Below the pieces are notes generated by a model that saw only the letters and a program-made list of their open reading frames with translations, had not been told where the DNA came from and searched no databases. From Pseudovirgaria hyperparasitica (Eukaryota): a DNA stretch of 63,724 nucleotides. Where the stretch lies: the NCBI GenBank assembly GCA_010093815.1, contig ML996565.1; one strand, 5' to 3'. A program made the translations under genes and the position numbers. Positions 23,479 through 63,724 of the stretch are shown here, piece after piece (position 1 is the stretch's first letter; each line of letters starts with the position of its first letter).

Positions 23479-26410
23479 ATAGCCCCGCCGAAAAAGAAAA
23501 CGTCTACCCATAAAGAGTTATAAGATCGTTAAGCACTAATAAGATAGACGCGGTCCTAGTTAAGAGTTATAAGTACTAAAGTAGGGCTATCGACGGCTAT
23601 CGTGGTATTAAGACCATCTACTACTCCGTACAGATAGGCTATAGAAGCTACGGAAGTAAATAAGTCTACCATTAACCGAATTATCGCTATCTAGGACCCG
23701 TAAGAGCGATAGGACTATATTCTAGACACGTTTAATAATCTCCTCTATATTACTAGCCTCATAGAATAGCTCTTAAGTAGTATAGTTAACCTCTTCTAGG
23801 AAGTAGGAGCCGTAATAGAGTATAGTAAGGTAAAGATTAACTCCTCTATTCCGAAAGAAGTCCACGAGATAATTCGTCGTGGAAGAGATACTAACTCCCG
23901 CATCCTAAAAGCTAAAAATATAATCCTATAAAACTAGCGAAAAGACCTCCCTAATAACGACGGCTAGTTACTCTAATCCGCCCTCGGATAGCTCTAGTAA
24001 ACATAGAACTTCATGGAAAAGCTAGTAGCGCTCTCACGAATACGGACATGGGCGAGAGCGAGGAACTAGTTAAACGTATCCCTATAGTCCCGAATCGGCC
24101 AGGGATAGAAGGGAAGAGGAATTAAGGCATATCTTTAGAGCTCTAATATTAATGCCGCTCTAGCTAGTAATAGTAATAAGGACGGTCTATCTCTCTAGTA
24201 ACTCTCGAACTACCCTAGCTAATAAAATAAACTAACGTTCTATAATAAGACGGGACTTATTATCCCCGCTAGTTAATAGTCACGGATAAGTAGAATAGTT
24301 TATAGGCCCGTCGAATACTACCTATAAATTAAAGAGATAAGTATATCGCCTCCGCCTTAGACCTTACCGTCGCTAAAACTAGCGTAGGTAATACCTACGG
24401 TAAAGTCCCCTCTACGAAGCACGCCTTCTAGTTTAGTAGTACGTCGTCTCTTCGAAGCTAGTCGTCCGTTCGAAGTAAGTATTCCTTCTACTACTACTAG
24501 TATACGTCCCTTACCGGGCCATACGAGAACCTCTTTAGTATCTATTATAGCTATACCGATAAAACCTACTCGCGGACGTGCCTTATCTACCGGCCCTTAG
24601 TAATTACCAGGGGCGCCTACATGATAATCCCCGGTTGTTCTTAGTTCGTACTCTAAGATAATAGCATTGGTCGAGGAAGAGAATAAGCCTAAGAAGTATT
24701 AATACGCGCCTTTAGTAACGAAGACTTTTAAGGTAGCTATATTATTAAAGAAGAATTTCACGAGCATTAAGGGAATGGCCCTACTAGTACGCTAGAAAGT
24801 GTAGATAGGTAATATAGCTATTCCGTATAAAGTCTACTATAAGTATTACTAAGACGTGGCTAGAAAGAATAATATACTCGTTAGCGTGTCCTACTTAAAC
24901 CTAGTAGCGAGACTTAAAATAGTATATAAGTTTAGAGATAACGTAGGGGCCCTTAAAGTTTATAAGGACCGCTATACCTAGTTCACGAAGTACACGCGGC
25001 CACCTTATCCAATAGAGGTATTAGGTATCTATCATTACTAGGCCCTAGAGACCCCGAAGCAAGTTATTAATATTAAAACCATCCTTACTAGTATCGTATT
25101 TATAATTTAGAAGGAGGACGGTAGAATAGATAGGTAACTCTTCGACGAGTAGGAACGTACTAGAAGTATTAATATTAAAGGGCTCTTTAAGCCACTTAAA
25201 AAGACGACCTCTATACTTAATAAGAGTATCCTAGAACTCGCGAGGGATGAATTTAATATATATAAGTACCACCAGCGCATGTTTAATAAGAAATTAAACT
25301 ACGGCTGGCTACGAACTACATACTACTCCTATATCTAATAGTTTATTAGGTAATATCTACTTTACTAGCTCACCTATATCGCTCTTCGGCCCGATCTTAA
25401 CTACTATCTAATCTCGTACTCGTACTATGCGAAGTCCTAGGATAGGGGCGATAAGACGGGTTTCAAGCATCTTAATAACGCCATTAATCAAATCCTCGAT
25501 CCTAGTGATAGACACGGGTTTAATATAATCTAGGGAAGTATTAGTCTCGACGACGAACGAAGTAACGACTATACTATAATCGTTCCCCGCTCCTATAAGT
25601 TCTTAAACGAATAGTAGTCGAAGGCTAAGCTCCGCGAGGGGGTCAATCGAAATAGTATAATCACGGCTATTAATGATAAGATCTATAATACGGACGATAA
25701 GAAACGATTTAGTCCCTTCGTCCTAGTCCCCTACTAGTCCCTTAAAGTACGTATCTCTAGCCCACTAATAATACACGGCGTCTAGGGTCCCGCAAAGGGT
25801 GGAAGACGTACGATACTTCCATGGTATATCACGATTGGCCCTAATTATATAATAATGGAAGTGCCTAAAATAGGTACATGGGAATAACTCGTAGTAGCTC
25901 ATAGGAATTTAACTCCGGGACCCACGTCTCCGTTAGGATTTTCTAATAAATATAGCGCGATTCCTTTTGCCTTCCTAGCCGTAGTTTAACTTCCGAGTTT
26001 TAACGCCGTTAGTAACGCATTAGTCGGCTATAAAAGATGGGATAGCTAGAAGGTAAAAGAAGAGGCAGCTGCGTAGCTTAACGCAAGTCCTTAACAACTT
26101 AAAGCCAAGGTAGACGCCTGGTTTAAGGAGGGCTCAAGGGTATTCATGGAGACCTTTAAGAAAATAGTAAGGTAGGAAAGGCTAGTCTATGGGGATAGGT
26201 CGTTCTAGAAGGAATTTAATAAGGCGCGCGCCGCCAAGCGGCCAATTAATTTTAAGAAATTCGAGTCTAACGCGGGCCTAGATAACGTTAAAGAGAACTT
26301 CTATAGATAGAAGAGGCCTAACGAACTATCCGATAAGGAGGAATCTAACCTCTCTAAGATAAGCGACACGATTCTTTAGAAGCTAGCTCGCGACCTTAAG
26401 TACTAAGATT
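23479..26410 (+). pseudogene. Retrotransposon-borne ~977-codon ORF with a C-terminal 2OG-Fe(II) dioxygenase (PhyH-like DSBH) domain
   Basis: One frame from an ATA (likely RIP'd ATG; APPKKK) in which the stops I checked are TAA/TAG. Motifs: TGFKHL[N/D] (H-x-D, 25468-25476), I[Q]GSISLDDE, IIVPRS[Y/H]K, VRISSPLIIHG (His 25774) and RRTILPW. Confidence 0.7.
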
Positions 26411-26610
26411 AGGCGCCTAAAAACCTACCTAATTATTAGTTAAGGGCTGCCCTTAACTAATAATCCGGGCTAAGGTTTACCCGCACCGAGAGGTTTACTA
26501 GGGGCGCATTTTATTTATATTAAGGTCTTTCTTTTAGGCGTTCTTCACACGGTTTCTCATACGGTTACTATACTACTAAGGGTAGTAGTTCTATAGGCCG
26601 GGGAGGTATA

Positions 26611-26982
26611 TATGGAAGGCCGCTCCTATAGCCCTACATATATATATCCCTAGCTCGATTACATAGCTTCATTATATATTTAAGGAGAGCGTTTTCCTTG
26701 GTCATTCTACTTGGCGCGCTTCCCCCATTACTAATATTCGACTATTCGACCTTTCCTTACGTTCATAGGCCTCTATAGGTATTAATTATTAGGCTTAGCT
26801 ATTAAAGAATTGATTAAGAGTATTATATAGACCCGTCCTATCGTAAAAGAGAACTAATAAGAAGTCGTACGTTTAAAGAGAACTCATAATACCTAGGAGA
26901 GATACTTATGAGTTCGTCGCGACTACTATACTAGGAATACAGCCATTTACAAAAGGGATATACGTAGCGATGGCTCACCATA
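26611..26982 (+). repeat. 3' LTR of element B
   Basis: Direct repeat of 15544-15915, preceded by the purine tract GGGGAGG. Confidence 0.95.
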
Positions 26983-27705
26983 ATACCATCTAACGTTTAG
27001 ATGGTATTAGGTCTAGGTAGTTCTATACAAACCTAATCTTATTACTATCGTTCGTGAATAGGTGGAAGAATCGGCTATACTAGTAAGCCTATTTATAAAA
27101 GCTCCTCCTGGTTTTACCGTCAAAGTAAGGTAGTTTCTTAGACTAAGGTAACTAGAATAGTAATAGACTTAGTTAGACTATTTCGGCTTAAGTTAGTCTA
27201 TATTAGTATAGGTTAGTTACTACTAGTACTAAAGCGCGTAGTACGGCTTCGAGTCTAGCGGTTCGTCCTTACACTTCGTTAAGTTTATAAAGTTACTACT
27301 TAAGCTAAGTCTAATACTATCTCTCCGCGTGTAGCTTAGTATATATATTATCGTAAGGCGTAGTTAACGTTAGTTAGTTCTAACGAATTAATTCGTTAAC
27401 GTTAATAGGGTCTAGTCTTATAGTAAGGATGGGTCTAGTATAGTATGAACTAGACCGCGATAGAGTATAATAGACTCCTTTCTTATTATCTAGGTAATCT
27501 TCCACGGTTATACGGAATACCGTACTAGTTATTAGTACGATAGCCTATAGGGTATACTTATCGGTAGAGGTGGTCGTAGGGAGACTATTCTCTTCGTTTA
27601 GATTTAGAGAGAGTCTCTCGTGTAAGGTAGTACCACGGGTATTATAGCGCGTAGTAGGAGCTATCTCTATAAGCTACCGTCGTGCTATATAGAGAGGAAT
27701 TAAAA

Positions 27706-27943
27706 TATAAAGAGTAAAGACGTGGGATAGTAGTCTAATAGTTCATAGAGAGACATAGGAATGTATTTATAGAGTAATCTTACTCTTATACGAGGTTGAT
27801 TCCTAACGAGTAGAAATCGGTTTATATGGTCTACTTATATAGTAACCTCGCTTAACTTAGCTAACTTAACCTAGCTCTGGCCACTACGTGGCTACATGGA
27901 TTAGAATGGTCCATTGTGGTCCATTGTGGTTCCCGTTCTAACA
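27706..27943 (-). repeat. 5' LTR of element A
   Basis: Direct repeat of 8432-8669, followed on the plus strand by TSD ATATA. Confidence 0.95.
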
Positions 27944-30249
27944 ATATACGTGTACCGGCTACTAAGTTTTCTTATATAACTATAGATACAAGGATACGGT
28001 TTAGCATGGTTTAAACTAGCGACCTTTAACTAAAATTAGCATCCGCTACACGCTAGTTAGTATTAACTATCGCGCGGTAAGCTAATATCTAATACCTTAG
28101 GGGTATAGTATATACGTTAACTTAAGTACCGCGGGCTATTATCGAGTTAAAAGTCCATTTCTAGATGCCTAGTTAATAGAGCCTATAGACAGACGCTAAG
28201 GAATCTCCCTAGAATAGCTTAAGCGCTATATTTTACATAGAATCTAAAAACTAAGTCTATGCGGATCTACCAAGACGAAGAAAATAGTAAATAGTTAATA
28301 TTTATACTATAAATAAGACACGCTAAGATAAATGTATATCTACTCTAGATCCTATAACAAAGGAGTAGTAGCCTACGATTAATTATCTCTAAGTATACTT
28401 ACTACTCGAGGAGTATTTAGATTATAGCTTCCAAACCCTATTAATATTTATTCTCCTAAGGAGCAAAGCTTAAGAGTAAGGAATTATATATAGTTAACTA
28501 CGCTCGAGGTAGTAGGTATTTATAAGAGCTAGAGAGAGAACATCGATAATCACCGTACTTATATTATAAGTAGCGAGATATCCGTTTATTAGCGTAGTTT
28601 AGATTCTAGAGCTAATTAACGGTAGTAATACTAAGTTACCCGTACCGTATCTAAACCTACTTAAGCTAGCTAGCGAGAGAAATAATAGGAGGGGGCAACT
28701 ACTAGACGTCTACATGTTACGTTAGACTTGTTAGTAGAGAGTAAGTATATCCACGCCCCCCTTACATTATACGAATAGTATAGAGGTGGTAGTAACCGGC
28801 GGATAGAGACTCTAGGGAGCTAGGTTAGAATTTTAACGCCATCTACTTTACTAACGGCATTGTTAACCATGTCTAACACGTATAAGTCTTAGGGCATTTT
28901 CAAATTCCTATACCGAAGGTAGCCGGTACTACGTCCTAGAAGGTCTCGAATATTAAGAAATATAAAGGATTCTAACCCATAAGAAAATTCTCGAGTAAAC
29001 CTATCCCTTGGCCGTACTAGAGCATTATTTAGTTATTTATATCTACTATTATCTAAAGTCTTATACCGCCGCATATCGAGGTTGAACCTTATAAGATACT
29101 ATGTTTAACCATGGTATAGATATAATAGCTTGTATACTTTAGTTAAGCGACTACATCTATTTCCCGTTTATACTCCTTATGAAAAGTAGAGCTCTATTAG
29201 CGGCCTAAGGATCCTAAATAAAGTATATAAACTTCCAACTAATCGCCATTATAAAAGATATTTATCTAGTAGTATAGGCTATCTAGAGTCGATTTACCGC
29301 CTTAATATGATTCTCGATTAATAACCCATTACGGACCTCGAGGTATACTAGCGATTATAGGAAAATAAAGGTCGTAGATAGCCCCCTAATCTTACCATAC
29401 TATATCTTTATAACTATACTTAGAACCTTTGTAATATATTATTATAATCTTAGCGTATATAGTAGTACTCTCTTCCTAGAAGTAAGGGTATAGTTCTATA
29501 ACGCCATGTATAACGTTTTACTATAGCGCCGGCCTATCTATATATTAGCTAGAATATTCGATAGGATTTCCGTTTAGGCTTACGCTACTATTTTTTAATC
29601 TACTAACAATTAGGAGCCGTTCTTTCGATATACAAAAGAACGTTACACGGGCCTAGGTAGTAACCATATACAACTCTTAGTAGAAAAACTAGATAGTCGA
29701 AAGATACCATAAGGTAGAGTCGAAAGGCAGCCCTTCCCATGCCTATATCCGAATAATTTTTATATATTAAGAAATCGCATGGTTAAAAGTTATATCTAGC
29801 TAACTTATAATTATTATTTTCACGGAGGGGGTAGCGAAGAATATACATGAAAACTACGTATTTTTCGTGATTTTTACTTTAATTTTCCTAACCGTGCGCG
29901 ATCGGTACCTAGATATACTATACACCGACCTACGTATACGTCTAAGGACCTTAGTAATCCTTATAGAATCGCGTACTCTAAGATACCTCTAGAATCGCCG
30001 ATTCTAATCTATTCTACTACTTACGAACTTTATAAGCTATAGCACCCCCCTTAGTACCGCTTCCTAATATAGATAGTATACGTTAAGTATAGGATATTAT
30101 ATTTAAACTTTTCTCTATCGGCGGGAGCGATAGAGCTTAAGCCGCCTTCTTCCGACCGTTATCGTTTCCTAGCCCGCTACTATTTATCGTACGATTACTA
30201 GAGGTAGCGGCTCGTTAGCTAAACGAGTAATAGATTCTAGCCTATTTAT

Positions 30250-31859: not shown

Positions 31860-34800
31860 ATAAATATATATAGATATCCGTAGATTTACTACTAGTCGTC
31901 GACCTTAATACCGGAGTAATTATCTATTAAGATTATAAGCGCGCTATTCTTCTATCCGCGCTAGACCGCCACCTCCTTTAAGAATACTAAGGAATAAGAC
32001 TAAAGTATTATAAGATTATTAAAAGCTATATTTACTTACTTAGTTATACCGCTACTATAATCGACGACCTTTAAATACCCGCTACCCTATCACGGCCTAT
32101 AAGGTATATTCCGGTTAAGAGAGGGTTCTAATATATTATTAAGAACTACGGATTAGTTCTTAGCCTTTTAAAGAATCTTAAATCATATATTAAAAATAAA
32201 TATATGGCGTTCTTTAATGGGCGTAGGGGGGCTCTACCTAGAGCGGACGATAAGACACGTGGATATAGAGATAATATACTATACTAATGCCTATAGAATA
32301 TAGGCCGGTTAAACCGCCTTATCCCGATTATAACACGTACTACTATATATACTCGTATACTAATTAATACTATACTCGATTAGCTCTAGTTAAATTAGTA
32401 GAACGTCCTTAGAGATAAAGATCGTATAGTATAAACCGGCGCTATTAACGAAGTTAATCCATAGCTAGAACGTATAAAATTTATTAACTACTTCTAAGGC
32501 ATGGATATCCTCGCACTTACTAATATTCTAGAGATACCTACTAAAGGGCCGCTAAAGATAGTATCGTCTAGTCTAAGAGTTCTATTCTACTAAGCCTATA
32601 AGATAGTAGGTACTTATGATAGACTACTATGCCTAGAAGTAGCGCGTTCTATAATAGAGCCCGGGCTATAGCGACCTCTCGCACGTTATCGGAACTAGAA
32701 AATATTCCGTGATTACTCGAAGCATCTTTAGCGTCTTATTATTAGGGCTATCTAAGCGTACTAGAATCCCTACTACCTCCCGGCTTTAGTCTTTAACGCT
32801 AAGACTAAGGCGTGTATTACTCGGCTTCTAGACTATATTACTACGGAATAGCTATCCGGCGAGAGTAATAGTAGCTCCGACTCTAAACCCGAGATAAGCG
32901 TGACTAACGACTATCGTAGAGTAGAAGGTAATCTTAGCGAGTAGGATCTAGAAACACGTCGGGCAAAACTATACGAGGTATTTAGTATCTAAACCCGCCC
33001 TCTTTCTCGCATCGCCTACCTTTATATATAGCTTATTATTATATTACTATAATAGACGCTATATATATACTTATTCGAGGCCGTACTAGTCCTATTATCT
33101 AGTCTACTATATATAGATTAAAACGGGGGCTTCCTTTTACCATAGAACTATACGTCTACTCTATTAGTACTTATTAAGTTCTCCCGCCTTATTATCCTTA
33201 AGTAGGCCATCTAGAAAGTCTTCTATAAGTAAGCGGGTAGTACTATAGATGTTCTCGGATATCTCTTACCATTTATTAACTAGTATCTCCTCCGTAGTAG
33301 TCGTAGTATAGTTAGATAGTAGATATAACTTAGAGCTTACGGTCTTAAAATCGTAGGTAACATAGCTATAGACGTAAAGATATAGTGGGTTAATAATATA
33401 CTTACGTATAATGTATATACAATTCTAATAAATACATTTAGAGGGATAGTCTCTAGCTTAATAAATCGAATAGCGCGAATATTATATACTAATATTCTTC
33501 TACTATCTTCTATAGAGGGAGTACTAGTAATCCTATAGTAGTTACTTATAGATAATACGGCTAATAACATAATCGGGTATAGCTTCCTTTAGTTAGCGTG
33601 CCTCTAGAAGTAGTTCTTATAGTTTAGAAGGCGAGTTAAAAAGGACTAGAATATATAGTTAGCGTTCTTTACTAGAGGAGAGTTAGATATATAAAAAGCA
33701 TAAGACTAGCTCGAATAGATTCGAGTCTTTCTTAGTTAGCCACTTATCCTTATCTATATAATAGCTAGATAGCCTACACGTGGACTAGAAATCCTAAGTA
33801 TACGGTACTATAATACGCGATAGGGTAATATACGTAATATTATTCTTTATAGTAATAAGCTTTATATTATAATAAAGTACTATAAAGGGTATATACGTAA
33901 AGGAGATATCCGCCTAATTCTTCGATATCTACCGCTAGTTATATATAATATTCTAATATAGTATCTTTAGTTAGTCATCCCGTGGAAGAAACAACTCGAG
34001 AGATTCATGGATCTAATATAGATAGTCGTCCCTATATATATATGGCTATTGCCGTACTAGACTAGCGAGTATATAAGCCATGCAATAAGAGAATAGATAT
34101 ATCTTAGTATAGAAGTAGTTAACGTAGGTATCGTAGACTATTATTAAGTTGCGATTATAATTATAAAGCGTAAGCTTTAGAAGTACGAGATTAACTATAT
34201 AGACGAGGCCGATAAGAATAGTCTATAGAATAAGGACTAGAATCCGGGTACCCGAGATAATAGTCTAACCGCTATCCTTAATAAGTAAGCTAGTTATAGT
34301 ATAAAGATTATCTAGATCGCGTATAGTCGTAATATAAGTAGCCCGTTTAGTATGGTAAAGACGGTAATAGAGAGGTACTTCTAGGTTAGTCGCGTATAGT
34401 AGTACGAGATTAGGGTGCCTATATTTAATAAGATTACGCCTAGCTAGACGTGAATTTTATAAGTACGGGCTTACCGCTAGGCTATACTCTAGAAGAAGGA
34501 CCCGTATAAGGCTATTAAGGTTATACTCCGTAACGAAAACGCTAGAATATAACTCTAATAAGAAAAGGTATTTACCGGGCTAGTCGAAGACTATAGTCTA
34601 ATACTAGTTATATAGCCGACTATCTTAGATAAAAGTCTACCTTTTATATTAGCTACGTTAATAGTACTAGATAGAGTAATACTAGTTATTATCCCGCTAA
34701 AGGCCCTTCGAGATAACCTTATCTACCGTTATTATAATAGTAGTATTACTATAGAAGTATTTAACCCTACGCACCCCCCTTACGGAACGTCTATTATTAT

Positions 34801-37110
34801 TATTATACCCGAGTCTATAAAAGGCGAACCGTTTATATAGTTTATAAACTATATAAATAGCCTAGGTGTTAGGCACGTGCCTACTAGTTAATTATACATG
34901 TATATAGTAGTCGTATATAAGTAGTGTGCTCCACCCTTAAAGTAGTAGCTTTAAGATTCGGTCCTTTTGGTATAGTTGGTTGGTGCGTGGAGCCCGCCTC
35001 CTTATATAATCTTAAAGCTACTACGGGGTCACGGGTTCAACTCTCGGTCTAGTTAACCGTTATTGAATTTCGCACGATTCCGTTTAGCTTACCACGTTAC
35101 GTGTACTTTATGCATGTAACGGATAACATGGTAGTAACGTTACTACGGTAAGTTAGCGTGTCTAGTACTAGAGACGGCATTATAAGTATTGGTTATGTGT
35201 ACACATCGTTTATACTAGGCCCGTTACGGCTAGTTTAGTTCATCTTTTATAAGGTAGCATGCCCACGACGCGTAAGGACACGCGCCTTCGAAAAGGGGAG
35301 ATATTATTAGGCACGTGCCTGCTAGTTAATTATACATGTATATAGTAGTCGTATATAAGTAGTGTACTCCACCCTTGAAGTAGTAGCTTCAAGATTCGGT
35401 CCTTTTAGTATAGTTGGTTAGTACGTGGAGCCCGCCTCCTTATACTAGGACTACTCGACCGTGTAATTATTAATAAGTACTACTATATTATTAATAACGA
35501 CTAGTTCCGGCCGGCCTTTCGCGATATCTAAATAATAGTCGACCTAGAGGTATAGATTATACTTCTAAGTATAACCCTACTACCCGATAATAAAGTAGGG
35601 CTATAGAAAGCTATACGTATAAACGCTAGAGATGTATTTATCTACCGCGAAGCTATAACTCGGCCTAATATTACGTATATACTTAGGAGCCTATCTAAGA
35701 AGGCTCGAGGTACCTATAGTTAAGCGGAATACGTACGATGTGTTAGATAGGGTATTACCGGTAGATATCTCGTCTTTACGCCTATAGTTATATAAGCTAT
35801 TAGCCTCGTAGGGGAGCTTGGTTACGATATATACTATTAAGAGAGTATAGCTAAGGAGTAGGTCCTTAACGGATTTATCGCCGAAGAAGAAGGTATTATA
35901 GTTACTATAAACGCTCTTAGCCTAGGTATTAACCTAGCTACCATTCGCGTCGTGATACACTTAGGCGCTCCTTCTTTATTCCTAGACTATATATAAGAAA
36001 GCGGCTAGGCCGGTCGCGACCATCTAACGAGAAGCCTCGCTATCTTCGTAAAGATAGGAGAAGCTACTACTAAGGACGCGATAATACTTACTTATATAAA
36101 CTAGATAGGGTGTCGTAGGGTGTTCCTAGACGAGTATCTTAATAGGTCGTTTAGTAGAAAGAGCTGTAATAGGGTTAAAGAGAAGTGCGATATATACGAT
36201 CCTACCCTATTAATATTCCTACTATATTTAGAGACCCTCTAGGAGGATCTAGAATTGGCGATTCTAGACCTTTCTAGTAGCTCGCCCGTGGGTTCCTTAA
36301 ATAGTTAACCTAACCTACCCTAGACTAATTAACCGTCGCGCTAGCCGCCTTATATATAGAATAAGATAAAACGAGTACGTGTATATAGTAATAGTATAGG
36401 CGAGGTAGGAAGACTAGTAAAAGGGCGGGTATTAGAACTTCCTAGTGCGCGTCCGGACGAAGATTACGTAGGTAAGAATACTTATAATTAACGAATGTTT
36501 ATATAATAATAGTCCATGAAACTAGTAGTATAAGAACGTCGTCTATAAAATAGATAATATATAAGTCTCGTCTAGTTATTATCCGAGTAGAGATAATAGT
36601 AGGCTAGTTATTATAATATATATGGTACTAATAGTAGAGTCTATACTACGTACTACTTAGATAATAGACGACTTATAGACATGGTTAAGCGTGTACTAGC
36701 CGACTAAATGCGAAAGAGTAATATCATGCCTAAACACGTGTACTACTTTACCTATTACTAGCTATAAATTCTATGTCTATAGTAGGAGCCTAGACCGGAG
36801 GGATAACTAGGGTTCCGTCGGCTCCCGGGAAATATTAAGTATATATAGAAATTTAGTTTATATCGAGCTCTTAGTATAATAGTAGTCTATCTATCTAGAC
36901 GATAGGCTACCCGGTTAGAAGGGTTTAGAATTTCGAAAACGGGCTAACTACTAATAGTAATAAGAGAAGGTGCATGGGACTCTAGTAAATTAGCCCGTTA
37001 GCTATAGTGTAAGCGGCGAGAGGGGGCGTATAAAATTACGAATACTATTCTAGAATTTAATTAGAGTACTCTACTAATTATAGATGTTAGTCGATAGGGT
37101 CGGTAGAATT
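31860..37110 (+). pseudogene. DUF3505(OrsD-like)-RecQ-type helicase (telomere-linked-helicase-like), interrupted by TRIM 1
   Basis: De-RIP'd motifs: VIIC.DCKRAI..LDRHL..EH, EVNP[W]LER, RGLEILSIRY.N..RNI, KY[H]KG, [Q]A[G][H]S, VIIPLKAL, LDRVII[DECH], NAL[G]LGI[D]..IRVVIH and DYI[Q]ESG[R]AGRD (~35985-36020), plus a Cys-rich C-terminus. Confidence 0.8.
34867..35444 (+). mobile_element. TRIM (non-autonomous mini LTR element) copy 1, 578 bp
   Basis: 140-bp LTRs at 34867-35006 and 35305-35444, TSD CTAGG (34862-34866 / 35445-35449), PPT GAAAAGGGGAGA and no ORF. Confidence 0.93.
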
Positions 37111-49200: not shown

Positions 49201-51790
49201 AACACGCACGACTAGAAACTACTTATAATTATTAAGAGTTTTAAGTAATAGCGATATTATTTAGAAGGCTCTATATATTAGATCGAATTATTATTAGATT
49301 ACGTAAATCTATATTACTTTATATCGACCAAGGTCCTTAATCGCCGATAAGTACGTTAGGCTAAGTAGATATTAATATTTAACTTTAAAATCTTATATAA
49401 AGCTAGAAGAGAGAATAAAGCTAATCCTCTATCGCGGCGTAAAGATTATAAGAAATCGTTATAGAATGACGTAGATAGTTAGTATAAGTTAGACTATACT
49501 ATACTTTAGATACTATAAGACTAGTTATCTAATAGAATACTAGAAGCTAGGACACTTTCGGCGATTCTCCGCGGGAATTAGAGCGGGTATTAAGTAATCT
49601 AAATAAACGTCTAAGAAACTAAGAAAACCCTCAAAGACTTAATTAAATCTACCTAGAATTCCGATATATTAGTAAAGAAAGTTATAAGTATAAAAGGAAG
49701 CGCTATAGATCCGCCGTGGTTATTAAGGTAGAAACGATAATCCAACGCGATTGTTAGGCACATGCCTACTAGTTAATTATATATATATATAGTAGTCGTA
49801 TATAAGTAGTGTACTCTACCCTTGAAGTAGTAGCTTTAAGATTCGGTCCTTTAGGTATAGTTGGTTAGTGCGTAGAGCCCGCCTCCTTATATAATCTTAA
49901 AGCTACTATAGGGTCACGGGTTTAACTCTCGGTCTAGTTAACCGTTATTAAATTTCGTACGATTCCGTTTAGCTTACCACGTTACGTATACTTTATATAC
50001 GTGATAGATAACATGGTAGTAACGTTATTACGGTAAGTTAGCGTGTCTAGTACTAGAGGCGGCATTACAAGTATTAGTTATGTGTGTACATCGTTTATAC
50101 TAGGCCTATTACGGCTAGTTTAGTTCATCTTTCGTAAGGTAGTATACCCACGACGCGTAAGGACACGCGCCTTTAAAAAGGGGAGATATTATTAGGTACG
50201 TGCCTACTAGTTAATTATACATGTATGTAGTAGTTATATATAAGTAGTGTACTCCACCCTTAAAGTAGTAGCTTTAAGATTCGGTCCTTTTAGTATAGTT
50301 GGTTAGTGCGTGGAGCCCGCCTCCTTATAGTAATCTACTTCTAAGACCGACTCTACGTGCCGGAAGGCGGCTTATAAATTAATATTTTAAGGGAATAGTA
50401 CGATTACGCGTTAGTAGGGCACTTTAGCGTTATAAGGACGGTCGATTTAATCCGAAGGACGTACGACTAGCCGGGTCTTTATAAATATATAAAAGACTAC
50501 GTAAAAACGTGTAACGTTTGCTAGTATACGAAAGTATATAGATACTTACTATATGGCGAATTAAGGCCATTACCTATGCTAAAGGAGGCATGGAAGGAAT
50601 TATTAATGGATTTTATTATAGATCTGCCCCTAAGTAAGTATTCTAGGTATATTTATAATAGTTTACTTATAGTTCTAGATAGATTTATAAAGATATTATA
50701 CTACATCCCTATAAGGAAGATAATCTAAGCACCGGATCTTATAGATATACTACTCCGTGATATAGTCCGGCTCTATAGTATACCGAACGGTATAGTTTTG
50801 GATAGAGGTCCGTAGATAACGTCTAAATTTTAGAAGAATTTCTACTATACGCTAGGAATTAAGCGGAAACTTAGTACTACGTTCCATCTATAAATAGATA
50901 GATAGACGGAGCGGTAGAATTAGATAGTCGAGGCGTATTTACGTGTATATTATAACTATAAGTAGAATAACTAGATAAGGTTAGTCTATATCGTGGAATT
51001 TGCGTATAATAATAGCCGATATATATTAACCCACGTAAGTCTATTCGAAGTAAACTTCGGTCGGAACCATAATATATAGTTCTTAGGGACCTAGTTTAAA
51101 GTAGAACGACCCAACGTTAAAGTAATAGAAATTACTATAGAACTATTCTAAACGTAAAGAAGCATTATAAAGTTACTATAAGATACTACGAATTATAGTA
51201 AATCGCACTATAACAAGGGTAGAAAACCTATAATCTTTAATATTAGGGATAAAGTTTTACTAAATAGTAAGAATATTTATAGTATTAGGCTAAAGAAGAA
51301 GCTTAACTATATAATAATAGATCTATATAAGATTACTCGTGTAATTAATGACTAGGTGTACGAGTTATAACTCCCTCCTACGTTAAAGATATATAATATA
51401 TTCTATATTACGCTTCTCGAGCCATTTTATACCTTATTATTACTAGATTATTCTAAATAGATACTATATAAAGTAGTTATATAAGAAGGTATAGATATCT
51501 ACGAAGTTAAGTAGATACTTAGCTAGTAACATACCGAAGATAGCACGTAGCTATATAAAATTCGTTAGAAAGGATATAATTCTAATAAAGATACTTAGGA
51601 ATCTATAATAAACATTAGTAAAGTAGCGATATTAGTATATAAGTAGCGATTAGCAAAGGAAGCCGCGGAATCATAGAGAATTATACTAAAGTACAGCAAT
51701 TCAACGTTTTTTAGTATAGTTCGGCGCCAAGGACGGCCGCCTAAAAGGAAGAAGGTAAAAGAGATATAGATCTTTAAAACATTCTAAGGA
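46274..51790 (+). pseudogene. gag-pol of element C (interrupted by TRIM 2)
   Basis: CCHC remnant ~47365-47410, protease ALVDT[S/G], RT, RNase H, integrase and chromodomain. Ends are approximate. Confidence 0.85.
49752..50329 (+). mobile_element. TRIM copy 2, 578 bp, inserted in pol of element C
   Basis: Same length as copy 1, differing almost only by transitions. TSD GCGAT/GTAAT differs by two RIP-type transitions. Confidence 0.93.
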
Positions 51791-55470: not shown

Positions 55471-56197
55471 TGTAAGGATTATAGACGTAGGATAGTAGTC
55501 TAACAGGTCATAGGAGGATTCGGGAATATATTTAAAAGGGTAGTCTACTCTCCTAACGAGGTTGATTCCTAAAGAGTAGGAATTAAGTATGTGCGGCCTA
55601 CTTATATAGTGGTCTCGCTTATTCTAGCTAGCTTAACCTGGGTCCACCTGTTACGGACCGTACTGGACCATAGTGGTCTAGTTGAGTCCATCCTAGTGTT
55701 AGCCCTAATAATATCCTTCTTCTTTTTATGCTTCGCCCCGAAGTACTTAGCTACACGTAAATCCGTAATTCTAAAAGCGTCATGTTTATGCGCGCATCCA
55801 ATTGAATCTATGTAACGTTATTGATAGTCTTTGCATTAGTAAACTTAAGCTCTAGTTTACTTTTATTTATGTACGCGCTTATCCCTTACTTTATAGCTAC
55901 TACCTTAGAGGTAGCTCCGTGGGTTATATAACCGCCACATTAACTAAGCTTATATTTAGTTTTCTTATTCTGAATTTTCTTCTCTAGTACATCCACCTTA
56001 CTCTTAAGGTAAGTCGTTAATTTGTATACTATCTCCTTTAGTTTAGATCCGTTCGGGTCTAGAGTGGTCCATTTTCGTTAGAGCTAGTCCTATATAATCC
56101 ATTCGCGTTGTTGCGGTTACTAATTTAGCTTCTTCAATCGCCTTTAAGGCTGAACGAGTATTCTACTCTTAGATCTCTAGCTAACGTGTGTGTATAG

Positions 56198-57502
56198 ATG
56201 TCTAATACTAGTCCTATTCCTAAGCCTGCCTCCTCCTCTCGCAAGACCCGCTCTAAAGGGATTGCCTCTACCCCGGCCATACTAGCTAAAAAATCCACTT
56301 ATCGTAGTGGTATAAAGGCGCGCTCTAAGTTAGAGAAGAAGGTAGCTAAGGCTACTACTACTATTACTACTAACGTGGCCACTAGTCGCTCTAATCCAGG
56401 TGATCCTAGTACTGGTGTTGCGGAAGAGGTGGCTATAAAGCCTACCTACACCTACTCGCGCTACCTATCTACTCTACCTCCTTTGGAGGATGAAGAAGAT
56501 CTCGTCGTAGACGATAATCGAGAGTTCACGCCTTCGCCGCCTCGCTCTAAACGCCGTTCCTCTTTTTGGTCTAACATGGACCGACTTAGTCGCTCTAGGT
56601 TCTTTTAGGACCTTAATATTCGCTCTAAACCTAGCCCTAGTAATAATAAGGCCTAGGTCGCCGAAGATACTAAACGTGGTCGCGGTTTACGCTATAGGAA
56701 AACGGCGAACTACGGTTTAATATGCTTTAAGTGTATTAAGGCTCACGCTACCGGCTCTAAATATCTCTTCCGCTCTAACTCTAGTATTAGCTGCTGCTCT
56801 ACTAACCGCGACGGGCCTATGCGCCTAATCTTTAAGCTCCCTACCTACTGCCGCCGCTATACCGTCCTCGGTAAAGTTTATCTTTAGGTAAGTCTATTAG
56901 GCTGTTTTAGTCTAGGGTAATCTAAAGTCGTCCATGATAATGCGTTTTTAGGTTCCTATTTATATATAAGATGCATATAACGATCTTCGCGTCCGCGAGA
57001 CTCTCGGCGGTTCTAGCGGTTACCTAGCTTCTATGCGCAGGGAGTTTAGGGAGCGCTATAAGCTCTTCCTAGAGGTTATTAAAGTATAAGTTTAGAAACC
57101 GTTAATTGTCATTGACCTTAGCTTATAATTTTTAGTCGCCGCGAGATTCCTAGCGCTTAGGCTACCCATTCTAGGGAGTCGGTTTTAGCTACTAAGGCCG
57201 TAGAAGAGATTCGTGCTATTCCTTCCCGCCCACCTCGTGCTACTAACGGGTCTCGCAAGAGATCTACTAGTTCTCCTTCTAAGTTACCTCGTAAGAGGGT
57301 ATATATTCTATTCTAGATTATTCTAGACCGCGTTAGCTAACTTTGGGTCTAGTTGCTCCGCTCTAGCGCTTAGTCGTTATCTTACTAGACTCTAACCGAG
57401 CGCGTGGTTACTCTGGAGGATAAGGTCTCTAACCTCCGTCGCTCTATTACTCGGTTAGTTCATTCGCTGCGCTCTAAGAGTGATAATAAGATGGAGGAGT
57501 AG
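56198..57502 (+). pseudogene. Antisense accessory gene of element D (Ser/Lys/Arg-rich N-terminus, Cys-cluster motif)
   Basis: ORF MSNTSPIPKP.. continues through RIP-type stops to LICFKCIKAH..SCCS..YCRR[C]TVLGKV[C]L, followed by a GTAAGT donor. Confidence 0.65.
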
Positions 57503-57809
57503 CTCTGTAGCTCTGTTTGCTAGGGTTTCTATGTGGTGTGTGTTGGCTCTGTCTGCCTGGTTTCTATCCGTTTTGGTCCTTTTTGGACCGTTTAGATACC
57601 CGTCTACTAGTTTTCTAGTAATTTAATTCTTAACTTAATGATATTATATGCGTTCTTGTTTATTCTATGACTATTGAATTTTAGGTTCTGATTTCCTTTA
57701 AGTTACTTAAGTATGGGCATCGTATATAAATTGGTTTATCTCTCTAAATTATATTAGAGCACCCGAACCAGTGGCCTAGTAGTTATCGGTTCGGGTACTC
57801 TAACCTTTT

Positions 57810-60800
57810 GTATTATATATCACGAGTTCAATTCCGTAGTAGGGTACCTTTTTGGTTTCTTGGTCCCATGTTCTTCTCGTGTACAATGGTCCATGTTGGT
57901 CCATTCTGGACTTCTCCATGTTATTCTATTGTAATATGTCGCGTCGCGTGCCTATAATGGTTGTTTACGTTTTCTTCGCGTTTGGTAACCGTGCATCACT
58001 TAAATTGTGGGGCTGCCTTGCAGAGTTTTCCTAGTATACGTTTAGGATTCGTGATTCGACACTTCGTTTTCCACGGTATCCTTCTTCTTTTTACGACGGC
58101 CCCGACGGCGCTAGGTTTACGGTAGTAACGTATTATCCTATAACCTCTGTTTATATATAGCTATCGCGGTACTTAAGATATGCACCGTAGGTTCCTAGGT
58201 GTCCTTATCCTCGGTGTAGTTCTTCTAACGGATTCGATACTTTTAGACACCGTTCTCGTCGAGTCTATATTCGATAATATAGTCCACTTCGTACACGTCT
58301 AGTCTATCTTAGGGTATAATAGAGTGTAATTACACGTTTGTGCGTTTATACACGTTAGGTCGAAACCTTTCAAGCAATAAGACGTGGAATACGTTATGGA
58401 CTTTTATATCGTTTCCTAGGTCGAGCTCGTAGGCTCTTATACTAATGCGACGTTTGATTCGGAAGGGACTAGCCATTTTATAATCGAGCTTTTTGTTCAC
58501 TCGCGACGTTCGTATATTACGGACGTTAAGGAGGACTTCGTCTCCCTCCTCGTACGCTTGATCTTTAACTAACCTATTATAGTACTTTATATATAACTTA
58601 TTCGCTTGCTAGATTATTACGCGATAGTTGTGTACGGTTTCAAAGATTTTAATCGCTAGTTCCTACGTGTGGACGTTAACATCTATCGTTCGGTCGAACT
58701 AGACCGTGTAAGGTTTGAAACCTATCCTTAGACTACGTCCTAGGTTCGCCTAGAAGGGCGTAACACCTGTTATACTATAACGACTATTATTATACGCGAA
58801 TTCTACTATGCTTAGTAGAGAGGCCTAGTCGTCTTATTCAAAATTATAGAATACACGAAGGTAGGCCTCGAGCGTTTGGTTCTGTCGCTCTGTCTAACCA
58901 TCTGTTTATAGATAGAATACTATTGACATGTTTCTGTTCATGCCGGCCATTTCGCAGAATAACGTCTAGAATTTGGACGTGAATATACTCCCTCGGTCCG
59001 TAACGATCCTTTTTGGTACACTATGGACCTTAATAATCTTATTCTAGAATACTTATGCTAGTTCTTTTAATGTGATCGTCTTCCATATAGGGACGTACCT
59101 AGACATCTTTATAAGTCTATCCACGATAATAAGAATTGAATCATAACTTATTCTAAGCATCTCGCTTGGAGGCAAGTTAACTATGAAATCCATAGTAATA
59201 TCTTCCTATATAAAGAGGGGGACTGGTAGAGGCTGCAAGTTCCTATATGGCTTGTGCCTAGGTGCCTTTGTTCTTTGACAAATCGGACAAGTAGCTATCC
59301 ATTCTTCGATGTACTTAGGCATATCTTCCTAAAAATAGTACTAACGAATCGAGCTTAGGGTGCGTATATACCCGAAATGTCCTACTAGGTTAGCGTTATG
59401 GTATCGGCTAACTACGGTAAATCGTGCGTTGCCTGTCGGTATATAGTACTTTCTATTATAGTGGAGCAAGCCGTCTACAAAGGTCTACTTACAGTCTACT
59501 TCGGTCCGTAATAACCTATCTTACTATATTTTACGTAACTTCAAAACTATCGGGTCTGTCTTTTATAGATCCACGATTAACTAGGCGAGGTCTACTTAAC
59601 ATACACGCCGGGCACCATCGCCCTCCCTAACAGCGCCGATAAATGGCTCGCTAGGGACTTCGGTACCGCGTCTTTAGTCACCGGCTTCGGTCTTATAAAT
59701 TCGATTACCGGTATCGGCGTTAGCATCTCACTAATCGTCGGATAACTTATTATCTAACCTCGTCCTTAAGAGTTAGGCCTACAGCTACTCCAGGACCCTA
59801 TGGCCACTATGATCCTAGGCGCCTTCTTCATAGTTAGGTCTTCTTAACATCCCATTAGCTAGGTTTATACTTCTAGGTCGATGGTAGATTATAAAGTAGA
59901 AATTTACAAGCTACTTAGCCCATTAAACCTATTAACGATTTAAAACCATCGTGCTTATGAATCCCTTTAAGTTATGGTGATTAGTTAGTAACTTAACGTC
60001 ATGCATGGCACCTTTAAGATAATGTCGCCACTACTTAAACGACTCTACTATTGCTAGTAGCTCTTGGTTATGAATAGTGTATCTAGTCTCGACGTCGGCC
60101 ATCTTGCGCGAGAAGAACGTAACTAGATACCATTGGACCTTTTTAGACTCTGTTGGTCCAGGCTAGGAGAGTATACCCGAGATTGTAAATCCTAATACAT
60201 TAGTTTCGACGCGAATAGGTTTGGTCGGGTCGAAGTACACTAGTAATAGGGCGGTTAGGAATGCTTCTTTAATCTTCTCGAAGGATGTTCTTTCGACCTT
60301 AGTTAATTTAATAGGTTATAATTCGATATTGCGCTGTTTCTATCCACCACGGACCGTAATAGACGAGTCGGTGGTAGTAGTGCGCGCATTGAGTGGTGCG
60401 GCTAAACGGGAGAAGTGTTTGATAAATTTTTGGTAGTAGTTGGCGAAGCTAATGAAGACACGTATATCTCGAACGGATTTTGGTTTAGGCTAGTCTATAA
60501 TAGTAGTAACTCTATCTCTCTCTATGGTTATACCTTGATTAGTGATGACGAAGCTAAGAAAGTTAACATAGTCCTAATAGAACTAGCATTTGGATAGCTT
60601 AATGTATAGCTTATGCTTTTCTAGCCTATCTAGGACTGCACGTATATGCTGGATATGCTCCTCCTCGTTATCTAAGAAGATAAGGATGTTATCTAGGTAC
60701 ACGATACATGTCGTGTCGAGTAGGCCTGCTAGCGCGTTATTAATGTACGCTTAGAAGGTGCCTAGCGCGTTGGTTAGTCCAAAAGGGACCACGGTATACT

Positions 60801-63200
60801 TAAAGTGTCTATAACGGGTCCTAAAAGCCGTTTTCCATTCGTCGCCTTCCTTAATACGAAGGCGATGGTAGGCGTTATATAGATCGAGCTTGGTAAAGAT
60901 CTTTGCGCGCCCTAGTCTATCGATAGACTCAGAGATAAGAGGTAGTAGGTAACGATTCTTTCGCGTGATATTATTCAGGCTACGGTAGTCGATATACAGA
61001 CGGAGGCTCCTATTCTTCTTCTTTACAAAGAGGATTAGAGCTCCGGCTAGGGATATACTAGGCCTAATCCACCCTCGCGTAAGGTTCTTTTCGATGTATT
61101 CTCGAAGGGCTTATAACTTAGGTTCTAAAAGAGGGTAGATAGGTCTATATAGAGGTTGCTAGCCGTCTTCGAGATTAATAGCAAGGTCGGTAGATTAGTA
61201 TTAAGGTAGTTCGGAGGAATCGATCGCTAACGCGACATGTTAGTACATTTTATACCAATGTGGTAGGTTTTCGTCTACTTTAATATTAAGCTTACTATTT
61301 TACGTAAGTAAGAGCACGTAGATAGTAGAGATCGCCTTTTCGTAATCTTTCTGGAATTATTCGTCGTCGACAAGCTATACTAGTTCCTATTAAGATAGGT
61401 TCATACGCTAGCCAGCTATCTTCTTAAGGAAGTCTAGTTTTAGGTTATATTTCTTAAGCTACGGTATACCTAGGATCATGTCGAAGGGACTATCTACCAC
61501 GATAAAGGTTGAGTAGTAGAGTTTCCATTTCCCTCCGCTATCCTAGATGCCGTATTTAATGGTGCAGGTGCCGTGTAACTTAATAGGACCGTCGATGCCA
61601 TGGAATATAGCACTTATTAGAGCTTGGATATCGGCGTTAAGTTCTCGTGCTCGTTAGGTCGACATAACGTTAGTGGCCGACCTACTATCGAGTATTATAG
61701 TCTAATATTGTCCACGAGGGACCTCGATAGGTCTAGCCTATAGTTCGATATACTATTTAGAGGATTGCCCCTCTATTATGGTCGCGTCTATAAGTCGCGA
61801 GGGTTTCTCGTAGGCTATTAGTTTTTTATGTTCTATGCTAGGTAGTTAGGCGTGATGTGTCCTGGCTGCTGGCACTTATAGTATATAACTAGTTAGTTAG
61901 TTGTATTAGCACTCGGTGGCTTCCCCGAACGGTACTTAGGTACTATATAGCCTATTCTACCATAGGTATAGTAAGTGACTTTAGATCGTTTATGCGAGTC
62001 GGTCCTCGTATCTTAATGTGTTAATTGGTAGAGAGATCCACGATACGATCCGCGTGGTTTTGAATTCGAGACGTAGTAGTGGCCTCGTAACATCCCGCGA
62101 GATCTGTTACTAAATCGGTTTTGGTTGGACGATTTTACGTTAGATTGGATTATTAGGGATAGTCGTGCACTAGCGCGGCGTTAATTATTTATTATACGCT
62201 AGTGTCGCTCCGCGAGGTTTATAAGAGCTTAGAGGTCTATAGAGATTATTATTATAAGGTCGAGACGGTCCTTTATATTTAGGGCGAGGGACCGTTTAAA
62301 GTCGTCGTACTATCGAATTATATAATCTTCTTCGGCTTCTCTCTAGAGGGGCCGAAGGTATTTAAGGAGTTGTAACGGTGACTAATTATCTCGTTATCGA
62401 GTCTCGAAGATATGGCCCTAGGCCTAGTCGCGTCGTTTAGCCCTATCGCTAAAACATTAGAGGAGAAATTCGGTGAACGTGTCCTAGTTATAGGTATCCT
62501 TAGGATGTTCGATTTGGTATGCCATCTAACGTTCTAAAGGCGTCGGGTCGAGGTAGTTCTAGGCGAATCTAATTTTATCGCTGTCGTTCGTGAATAGATA
62601 GAAGAATCGGCTACATTAGTAAGCCTATACGTGGAAACTCTTTCTACTTTTACCATCGAAGTGAGGTGGTTTCTTAGGTCGGGGTAATTGGGATAGTAGT
62701 GGACTAGGATAGATCGTTTTAGTTGGTGTGGGTCCATATAAATGTAGATTGGTCGTTACTAGAACTAAAGCGCGTAATATAGCTTTAAGTCTCGTAGTGC
62801 GTCCTCGAGCTTCGTCGAGTTCGCGTAGTTATTACTCGAGTTAAACCTATTATTACCTCTCTTCGTGTAGTCTAGTATACACGTCGTCATAAGGTGTGGT
62901 TAACGTTAGGCGATTCTAATAGATTAACTCGTTAACGTCAATAAGGTCTGGCCTCGTGTTAAGGTTAGGTCTAGTATAGTTCGAACTAGACCGAGATGGA
63001 GTGTGATAGACTCCATCCTCGTGTTCTATAACATCTTCTATAGTTACACGGAATGTCGTACGAGTTATTAGTGCGATAGCCTATAAGGTATAGTTATCGG
63101 TAGGGGTAGTTGTAGGTAGACTATTCTCCTTATTTAGGTTAGGAGAAGGTCTACCATAAGAGGCGGTGCCACGAGTGTTATGATAAGTGGTTGGAGCCAT
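57810..63200 (-). pseudogene. gag-pol of element D
   Basis: ATG at 63200, CCHC knuckle [C]YKCQQPGHITPN[C] (~61845-61885), RT CIVYLD[N/D]IL (~60690), integrase and chromodomain (~58190-58300). The pol end is approximate. Confidence 0.88.
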
Positions 63201-63354
63201 TCCTATAAACTACCGTCGTGCTATATAAAGAGGAATCAAAATGTAAGGATTATAGACGTAGGATAGTAGTCTAACAGGTCATAGGAGGATTCGGGAATAT
63301 ATTTAAAAGGGTAGTCTACTCTCCTAACGAGGTTGATTCCTAAAGAGTAGGAAT

Positions 63355-63364
63355 NNNNNNNNNN
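63355..63364. other. Assembly gap (10 N) with a 95-bp overlap duplication
   Basis: 63260-63354 is repeated exactly from 63365. Confidence 0.95.
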
Positions 63365-63724
63365 AGGATAGTAGTCTAACAGGTCATAGGAGGATTCGGG
63401 AATATATTTAAAAGGGTAGTCTACTCTCCTAACGAGGTTGATTCCTAAAGAGTAGGAATCAAGTATATGCGGCCTACTTATATAGTAGTCTCGCTTATTC
63501 TAGCTGGCTTAACCTGGGTCCACCTGTCACGGACCGTACTGGACCATAGTGGTCTAGTTGAGTCCATCCTGGTGTCAGCCCTGACAGAAAGATAAAAGAT
63601 ATTTTCTCTCTCTCTATTAATAAAGAGATATTAATATTAAAAATAGTCTTATACTCTAATTTTAATAGAGTACTATCTATATAGACTACTAGAATCTCTA
63701 TAATAATATAAGCTATATATATAT

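Follow-up and report, generated by a model that had tools for sequence, protein, structure and literature searches.

The window analysed here, a 63,724-nucleotide stretch of contig ML996565.1 from Pseudovirgaria hyperparasitica (assembly GCA_010093815.1), contains at positions 34867-35444 a non-coding element of 578 bp with 140-bp long terminal repeats (LTRs). TRIMs are defined by two direct terminal repeats of about 100-250 bp and a short internal domain, for a total length well below 1 kb, and the locus agrees with this description in the sizes of its LTRs and of the whole, in the placement of its primer-binding site (PBS) and its polypurine tract (PPT), and in its target-site duplications (TSDs). 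With these features, TSDs of 5 bp and no coding room, the element is a TRIM, as an earlier, sequence-only reading of the locus had recognised; the strings quoted by that reading all lie where it had placed them. The features are the following, with strand in parentheses.

34862..34866 (+), TSD of copy 1, CTAGG, with the identical five bases at the other flank (35445-35449)
34867..35006 (+), 5' LTR of TRIM copy 1, a direct repeat of 140 bp, TGTTAGG...CCTTATA
34914..34921 (+), TATA box TATATAAG in the 5' LTR, with the self-primer 28 nt downstream
34936..34955 (+), 7-bp LTR hairpin, CTTAAAG / CTTTAAG with loop TAGTAG, read from the sequence and overlapping the self-primer
34942..34958 (+), self-primer segment in the 5' LTR, 17/17 complementary to the PBS
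34965..34968 (+), T4 run in the 5' LTR
34968..34979 (+), A-box-like motif TGGTATAGTTGG in the 3' part of the 5' LTR, between the self-primer and the LTR end (putative U5)
35007..35304 (+), internal region, 298 bp, non-coding
35008..35024 (+), PBS, starting 2 nt past the 5' LTR
35032..35046 (+), small hairpin (CGGG 35032-35035, loop 35036-35042, CTCG 35043-35046) with the B-box-like motif
35034..35044 (+), B-box-like motif GGTTCAACTCT in the internal region
35290..35301 (+), PPT GAAAAGGGGAGA, followed by TAT and then the 3' LTR
35305..35444 (+), 3' LTR of copy 1, 140 bp, 95 % identical to the 5' LTR
49752..50329 (+), TRIM copy 2, with 92.5 % identity to copy 1 and TSD GCGAT/GTAAT (matching apart from RIP-type transitions), inside the pol gene of gypsy element C
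55471..63586 (-), element B, a complete Ty3/gypsy chromovirus identified by its Pfam domains, self-priming, TSD GAAAG, about 8.1 kb with its LTRs

Copy 2 has the layout of copy 1, with the first A-box base changed from T to A and a B-box C changed to T, in agreement with the sequence-only reading, and excising 583 nt (copy 2 plus one TSD) restores the pol frame of element C. The four LTRs of the two copies differ at 18 columns (17 transitions and one A/T), all 26 differences between the two internal regions are transitions, and the TpA/ApT ratio is 2.07 in one copy and 2.21 in the other. The family rose to high copy number and RIP came afterwards. Variants and solo LTRs were drawn from four sequencing runs, used as contigs, of which two are guessed to be of DNA and two are of unrecorded kind. 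A solo LTR of the TRIM, with TSD CTTTT, lies in non-RIP DNA of another sample (runs X3/X4) and reads CA after 35004; the RIP-affected 5' LTR ends in TA. A degenerate 32-nt pattern covering the stretch upstream of the LTR end had no loci in a scan of metagenomes.

The segment at 34942-34958, which the sequence-only reading had called the self-primer, is complementary to the PBS at 35008-35024 over 17 of 17 positions in copy 1; in copy 2 the figure is 16 of 17. The resulting 17-bp stem dominates the RNA fold (z -2.3 and -2.6). Less mutated copies have C at 34943 and 34952, consistent with C>T changes of RIP type in that arm of the pairing which lies in the LTR, and matching changes in the PBS would have preserved the pairing through RIP. 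Lying 28 nt downstream of the TATA box, the segment would represent the 5' end of the element RNA. Judged by this arrangement, the TRIM would prime its own reverse transcription in the Tf1/sushi manner, a mode of priming described for that group, fungal elements included, in passages of PMC6317226, PMC4600332 and PMC6934838.

The same organisation recurs in the autonomous elements of the window. The minus strand of element B, on which its genes lie, encodes RVT_1 (1.1e-29), RNase H, Integrase_H2C2 and SH3_Tf2-1 domains, together with a weak Chromo match under Pfam's cut-off; its plus-strand translation has no Pfam matches. Elements B and C both have a hairpin followed by a 9-nt self-primer, and a PBS 3 nt past the LTR, the 9-bp hairpin of the B LTR being analogous to the 7-bp LTR hairpin of the TRIM. 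Element B is a co-resident autonomous chromovirus with matching LTR ends: its LTR termini read TGTCAGG...TCCTTACA, against TGTTAGG...TCCTTA(T/C)A in the TRIM. The window has four occurrences of the 12-nt PPT/LTR junction GATAT/TRTYAGG (the stroke marks the boundary), all at 3'-LTR junctions, two of the TRIM and two of B, and the 11-mer TATATAAGTAG at the TATA box occurs 11 times, in the four TRIM LTRs, in four B LTRs and at three other places. Local alignment of the TRIM and B LTRs does not reach significance (a score as high is obtained by 29 of 500 shuffles), nor does that of the TRIM internal region with the last 600 nt of B (38/100 shuffles). The first 600 nt of B give a weak match to the internal region (1/100 shuffles), which is built on a 13-nt identity, positions 35042-35054 being found, 13 bases out of 13, in the gag region of B. 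Because overall LTR similarity is not significant, the case for a partnership is built on the termini, the junction, the TATA motif and the layout. On these grounds element B is a candidate autonomous partner, and the TRIM was probably copied by a B-like neighbouring gypsy element.

These observations lead us to favour, as reasonably probable, a self-priming, non-autonomous TRIM that is transcribed from its LTR promoter, depends on a chromovirus and is functionally of Tf1/sushi type, its A-box-like and B-box-like motifs being due to chance or unproven as promoter elements. Transcription would begin about 28 nt downstream of the LTR TATA box, at or near 34942, most probably from a promoter of the LTR type used by the co-resident chromovirus and by RNA polymerase II (Pol II). 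The RNA 5' end (34942-34958) would then fold onto the PBS and prime minus-strand DNA, the PPT would prime the plus strand, and reverse transcriptase and integrase would come in trans from a B-like element. The TATA box is placed 28 nt upstream of the self-primer, a layout that agrees with that of element B, so that an ordinary LTR promoter explains it and would be a simpler promoter model than a split, tRNA-like one. The TATA box itself cannot tell Pol II from Pol III, because fission yeast Pol III genes also use a TATA box near -30.

The main alternative, which builds on the sequence-only reading, is a master copy with a working type-2 Pol III promoter, TRIMp3-like and complete only at the 5' LTR: a TATA box upstream, an A-box within the LTR and, 55 nt beyond it in the internal region, a B-box, with a start inside or at the self-primer. 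We regard this model as unlikely. The B-box-like motif does sit outside the LTR, in the internal region, and only the 5' LTR has one after it, because the direct repeats are 34867-35006 and 35305-35444. Both motifs fit the loose consensus forms and retain every position that we take to be invariant in tRNAs. The less mutated letters make the fit better, not worse: at position 34972, in the A-box, G accounts for 36 % of depth in run X1 and is also the letter of the non-RIP solo LTR, and at position 35038, a C of the B-box, T accounts for 95 % of the depth of run X1 and C is kept in 5 %, a frequency comparable to that of other presumed ancestral CpA cytosines (2-15 % of depth).

Each motif singly occurs at chance frequency, and only their pairing is unusual. 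The consensus forms compared here were picked after the sequence had been seen, which counts against the Pol III model, as do the single-motif numbers: on both strands of the window the loose A-box TRGYNNARNNGG has 17 matches against 18.5 expected and the loose B-box GWTCRANNC 12 against 10.7, and the strict forms TRGCNNAGTGG and GGTTCGANNCC have none. An A-box with a loose B-box 30-100 nt behind it is observed once against 0.135 expected, and among 200 simulated windows 12.5 % had at least one such pair; for the tighter B-box GGTTCRANNC the corresponding values are 0.015 expected and 1.5 % of simulated windows. By our scaling, 0.135 per 127 kb of strand corresponds to about 0.0006 for the 578 nt of the element's sense strand, so that in so short an element a pair in the right order and spacing would seldom arise by chance, which counts against the favoured reading.

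At the level of the tRNA, the comparison turns against that model. The proposed resemblance of the LTR end to a tRNA 5' half, and with it a derivation from a tRNA, is not supported: beyond the boxes no tRNA similarity was detected, ARAGORN finding no tRNA in the window and Rfam (4227 families, tRNA included) giving no match at E<=10 on 34700-35600 or on 34955-35060. With introns allowed and thresholds of 90/80/70/60 %, ARAGORN returned 12/138/196/207 matches in the window, none of them over 34960-35050. That stretch has no acceptor stem or cloverleaf that could be found, and it folds at -17.7 kcal/mol, worse than its shuffles (-23.3; z +2.0), 196 of 200 of which fold at least as well. An isolated 254-nt fragment gave a sub-threshold 'tRNA-Ile(tat)' at 34973-35058, in copy 1 only, but its cloverleaf is poor, with part of the proposed A-box serving as acceptor stem. 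The same sub-threshold call came back with nine observed less mutated letters inserted; adding two further inferred letters left it unchanged, and only then did it reach the 90 % threshold. A hand-drawn cloverleaf, with CCCGC and an inferred GCGGG on the two sides of an 'intron' made up of the LTR end and the PBS, was also rejected, having 6-7 extra bases from the D-arm to the stem and unpaired acceptor arms, and being invisible to ARAGORN in intron mode. A copied primer as the source of the tRNA-like half was set aside, since that half is sense-oriented and upstream of the PBS.

Other properties fall on both sides. A scan of both copies for internal terminators, a check that the sequence-only reading had suggested, found no T run of five or more anywhere in the element, which is on the side of the Pol III model. 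The longest runs are T4: that of the 5' LTR lies between the proposed start and the A-box, which tells against the model, and others recur in the 3' LTR of both copies (35403-35406 and 50288-50291) and, in copy 1, in the internal region (35245-35248). The LTR layout is common to the autonomous element B, whose length of about 8.1 kb would be more typical of a Pol II product. The length of 578 bp is within the range given for Cassandra and Helenus, and fungal TRIMs with tRNA-like LTRs provide a precedent, although in Helenus the tRNA-like unit lies wholly in the LTR and is found by tRNA similarity, which is not the case here (PMC10886601 for Cassandra and Helenus). The A-box/B-box likeness is best described as a short motif match, due to chance or unproven, which leaves a tRNA-derived promoter unproven as well. 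The fuller proposition, a Pol III-transcribed, self-priming master TRIM whose split promoter is complete, as an A plus B unit, only across the 5' LTR and the first 40 nt of the internal region, appears distinctly unlikely.

It is very unlikely that the motifs are instead cis-acting RNA structures for reverse transcription or packaging, with one hairpin from the self-primer to the LTR end and another directly behind the PBS, and a D-arm and T-arm likeness acquired from serving an enzyme with tRNA-primed ancestors: Tf1 self-priming does require extra RNA structure around the primer, the motifs lie to either side of the primer/PBS duplex, and copies 1 and 2 both form the post-PBS hairpin, but the stems are of only 4 bp, the inner fold differs between copies 1 and 2, and B and C are without similar motifs at the same places.

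Read as a self-priming TRIM with an LTR promoter, the locus shows clearly, in one window, a self-priming TRIM of high copy number beside the element that is likely to be its autonomous partner, and can help with the annotation of fungal genome compartments that are rich in repeats and mutated by RIP. It also carries a warning, namely that box A and box B look-alikes in AT-rich, mutated DNA need a test at the level of the tRNA before a Pol III claim is made. Since TRIMs with tRNA-derived promoters have already been published as Helenus/TRIMp3 (Kojima 2024; PMC10886601), a Pol III version at this locus would belong to a type already described. Should the Pol III model hold, the recently proposed TRIMp3 class would gain a new fungal group, partner superfamily and promoter layout; this family would become the first of TRIMp3-like kind from a fungus affected by RIP (presumably an ascomycete) as well as the first to be gypsy-dependent and self-primed, and the split promoter would avoid promoter duplication at the 3' LTR.

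Among the systems with which the element can be compared, Cassandra, the 5S-derived TRIM, shares with the Pol III model the idea of a small LTR element with an internal Pol III promoter; no 5S rRNA-derived LTR sequence was detected here by Rfam (4227 families). The sequence-only reading had named Cassandra and SINEs as precedents, but its list lacked the tRNA-headed TRIMs of the Helenus type, which include fungal ones (PMC10886601). The whole tRNA-like unit of Helenus lies in the LTR and is recognisable as a tRNA, with both boxes, A (TRGCY...YGG) and B (GGTTC), conserved inside the LTR; fungal Helenus elements belong to Pucciniales and a few Agaricomycetes (the supplementary family lists may add fungal groups), have PBSs that match either the anticodon loop or the 3' end of tRNAs, and are partnered by Copia elements (PMC10886601). 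The TRIM resembles them in its sense-oriented box A-like and B-like motifs, its 5-bp TSDs (as in fungal Helenus) and its similar size. It differs in that its LTR has no detectable tRNA-derived sequence, its box A has the letters TGGTA, or TGGTG where copies are less mutated, and misfits TRGCY at positions 4-5, its GGTTC is present but in the internal region rather than the LTR, and it is probably self-primed, with a likely gypsy chromovirus partner.

TRIMs in general are matched by the 140-bp LTRs, the 298-bp non-coding internal region, the PPT, the 5-bp TSDs, the probable dependence on an autonomous LTR element and the solo LTRs; unlike in these, the PBS is complementary to the element's own LTR rather than to a tRNA, and the host DNA is RIP-mutated and fungal. 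With the self-priming chromoviruses of the Tf1/sushi group (Tf1, Tj1, Maggy, Skippy, Cft-1 and others), the TRIM shares a PBS complementary to an LTR segment downstream of the TATA box, and its co-resident elements, with reverse transcriptase, RNase H, integrase and a Tf2-type SH3 domain, have the same layout. The self-primer complementarity is 11 nt in Tf1. Unlike those chromoviruses the TRIM encodes nothing, and its primer complementarity extends over 17 nt, a length that in both autonomous elements of the window is 9 nt.

The sequence-only reading of this DNA as a TRIM holds up, and the repeat is a real LTR element: it has short LTRs, target-site duplications (TSDs) and a polypurine tract, and its excision restores the pol frame of its host. 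The features considered here are the following.

34867-35444, plus strand: TRIM copy 1, 578 bp
34867-35006 and 35305-35444: 5' and 3' direct repeats (LTRs) of copy 1, 140 bp each, 95 % identical
34914-34921: TATA box TATATAAG, 28 nt upstream of the self-primer
34936-34955: 7-bp LTR hairpin overlapping the self-primer, read from the sequence
34942-34958: self-primer segment of the LTR
34968-34979: A-box-like motif TGGTATAGTTGG
35008-35024: primer-binding site (PBS)
35034-35044: B-box-like motif GGTTCAACTCT, inside a 4-bp hairpin (CGGG/CTCG) at 35032-35046
35290-35301: polypurine tract GAAAAGGGGAGA, 3 nt upstream of the 3' LTR
45848-53685, plus strand: gypsy element C, with RVT_1 (2.4e-20), RNase H, Integrase_H2C2 and SH3_Tf2-1
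49752-50329, plus strand: TRIM copy 2, 92.5 % identical to copy 1
about 63449-63475, plus-strand coordinates: hairpin with the self-primer in the LTR of chromovirus element B

The TRIM LTRs start with TGTTAGG, or TATTAGG in the 3' LTRs, and end with CCTTATA. The TSD of copy 1 is CTAGG at both ends, and that of copy 2 reads GCGAT and GTAAT, with C>T and G>A as the sole differences; the sequences flanking the two copies are unrelated. Copy 2 is inserted in the pol gene of element C, between the RNase H and integrase regions, and removing 583 nt (the TRIM plus one TSD) restores the reading frame.

The DNA around the TRIM is RIP-mutated, with a TpA/ApT ratio of 1.71 in 7-55 kb versus 0.69 in the initial 6.5 kb, where GC is normal, and the ratio is 2.07 and 2.21 in the TRIM copies. 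Transitions are found in 17 of the 18 variable LTR columns and in all 26 internal differences between the two copies. The shift in GC is sharp: positions 1-7000 of the window have 47-55 % GC and normal RIP indices, while 7000-56000 form an AT-rich, RIP-type compartment (30-41 % GC, TpA/ApT 1.71). Isochore-like GC structure of this kind is known in some plant-associated ascomycetes.

The TRIM was also compared with contigs of four public sequencing runs, X1 and X2 from one sample, X3 and X4 from another. Contig pieces matching it at at least 80 % identity number 1581 in X1 and 725 in X2, so the family is very abundant in that sample. X3/X4, whose sample has the same species label, contain a solo LTR (over 34867-35004) with CTTTT on both sides and flanking DNA without visible RIP mutation; a nearly unmutated LTR copy therefore exists, and since it reads CA after 35004, the canonical ends of the TRIM are TG...CA. 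Among the variants listed, this solo LTR, like a minority of the copies in X1/X2, differs from the window in having G or C instead of A or T at 34902, 34904, 34905, 34908, 34922, 34939, 34943, 34952 and 34972, and the A-box-like motif thus had a G at 34972 before mutation. In the B-box-like motif, the C at 35038 is retained in only 5 % of X1 depth, a level comparable to that of other CpA cytosines inferred to be ancestral among the variants listed (2-15 %).

That the LTR contains a self-primer had likewise been proposed, and this is supported by complementarity of 17/17 in copy 1 (16/17 in copy 2) between the segment and the PBS, which starts 2 nt past the 5' LTR. The primer/PBS stem dominates RNA folds that include the primer segment (-35.9 and -33.9 kcal/mol, z -2.3 and -2.6). 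Within the self-primer arm, less mutated copies have C at both 34943 and 34952; we infer that RIP probably hit the primer and PBS arms at mirror positions, so that pairing was kept. The TRIM and element B each have their self-primer as the 3' arm of a hairpin, with a 5' arm that repeats part of the PBS sequence, and the hairpin and the primer/PBS duplex are consequently alternative pairings; a switch between them could gate priming in both elements.

Element B (55471-63586, minus strand) is a complete Ty3/gypsy chromovirus with 240-bp LTRs and the TSD GAAAG at both ends. Its minus strand, translated with stops as X, yields RVT_1 (1.1e-29), RT_RNaseH_2, RT_RNaseH, Integrase_H2C2 and SH3_Tf2-1, together with a sub-threshold Chromo match. 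In its own orientation, the B LTR starts with TGTCAGG and ends with TCCTTACA, which are the TRIM ends with one C/T difference. The 12-nt junction of polypurine tract and LTR, GATAT|TRTYAGG, has four occurrences in the window, all of them at the two TRIM and two B-family junctions, and the 11-mer TATATAAGTAG occurs 11 times, in four TRIM LTRs, four B-family LTRs and three places elsewhere. B also carries a hairpin of 9 bp; its 3' arm, AGGAATCAA, is the complement of a PBS located 3 nt beyond the LTR, and element C shares the design, AGTAATTCG at 46005-46013 being complementary to 46083-46091 (9 nt). Overall, the TRIM and B LTRs are not significantly similar (29 of 500 shuffles reach the same score), and all that the TRIM internal region has in common with the B gag region is a run of 13 identical nt (35042-35054), a score reached by 1 of 100 shuffles. 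We propose a B-like element as the putative source of enzymes for the TRIM because of the ends, junction, TATA motif and layout, not of homology in the LTR body.

Several further observations concern the B family. Element B is less RIP-mutated than the DNA around it. Its LTR at 63242-63586, upstream on the plus strand, has a 10-N gap (63355-63364) with a duplicated stretch on either side, apparently an artefact of assembly. The window also contains a more heavily mutated second copy of the family (8431-27947, LTR-like repeats at 8431-8673 and 27705-27947), which is broken by an element with 379-bp LTRs (15539-15917 and 26607-26984), indicating nested insertions. Just upstream of element B, 54119-54802 holds a tandem pair of units, each about 319 bp long, that are 87 % identical to each other.

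The TRIM is probably driven by an ordinary LTR promoter, a reading favoured by a layout common to two autonomous elements several kilobases long, by the absence of tRNA similarity, and by a T4 run (34965-34968) downstream of the proposed Pol III start and ahead of the A-box. The TATA box, which precedes the presumed start by some 28-30 nt, is compatible with both Pol II and Pol III, as Pol III genes in fission yeast also have an upstream TATA box. The element has no run of T5 or longer, and this too is compatible with either polymerase.

A working Pol III promoter split over the LTR/internal boundary, the central claim of the sequence-only reading, is unlikely. The quoted A-box and B-box strings are present and match at string level, both motifs retain the positions that are invariant in tRNAs, and the element size fits; the main point in favour is the rarity of the pair. 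With consensus forms picked with the sequence already in view, the loose A-box TRGYNNARNNGG was observed 17 times on both strands (18.5 expected) and the loose B-box GWTCRANNC 12 times (10.7 expected), so that only the pairing is unusual: an A-box followed by a B-box 30-100 nt away occurs once against 0.135 expected on both strands (about 0.0006 when scaled to a single 578-nt sense strand), or 0.015 with the tighter GGTTCRANNC. The tRNA-headed reading itself found no support. ARAGORN detected no tRNA in the whole window and, with introns allowed, none of its 12, 138, 196 and 207 window matches at thresholds of 90, 80, 70 and 60 % lay over 34960-35050. Rfam returned nothing at E<=10 for stretches of 901 and 106 bases, the 91-nt stretch claimed as tRNA-like folds worse than its own shuffles (z +2.0), and the 5' and 3' 'acceptor' strands, judged by eye, do not pair. 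An isolated fragment gave a sub-threshold 'tRNA-Ile(tat)' (34973-35058, copy 1 only), a weak cloverleaf with an acceptor stem made from part of the supposed A-box; inserting the observed less-mutated letters left the result unchanged. It is more doubtful still that the two hairpins would have a structural role in reverse transcription.

In our view the locus is a TRIM that primes itself and probably depends on a chromovirus, lies in RIP-mutated DNA of a fungus and belongs to kinds already known. Self-priming is reported for Tf1, Tj1 and the Tf1/sushi group, fungal elements included (PMC4600332, PMC6317226, PMC6934838); a self-priming TRIM in fungi was not described among the matches listed for TRIM, self-priming and chromovirus and for the Helenus/TRIMp3 literature from 2024. 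TRIMs with Pol III promoters derived from small RNAs, namely Cassandra (5S), Helenus (tRNA) and Ajax (5S), are jointly named TRIMp3 by Kojima (2024, PMC10886601), and a tRNA-headed Pol III TRIM is thus not new as a concept. According to that paper, fungal Helenus elements occur in Pucciniales and a few Agaricomycetes, have 5-bp TSDs and Copia partners, and carry PBSs matching tRNA anticodon loops or 3' ends, the author having found that this PBS is not complementary to the tRNA-like part (PMC10886601). The present TRIM is not classed as Helenus because the recognisable tRNA-derived LTR sequence that defines the latter is absent. The present TRIM and fungal Helenus share TSDs of 5 bp, whereas fungal Helenus combines a tRNA-type PBS and a Copia partner with a tRNA-like unit lying entirely within the LTR, and the present TRIM combines self-priming and a likely gypsy chromovirus partner with a B-box-like motif beyond the LTR end at 35006.
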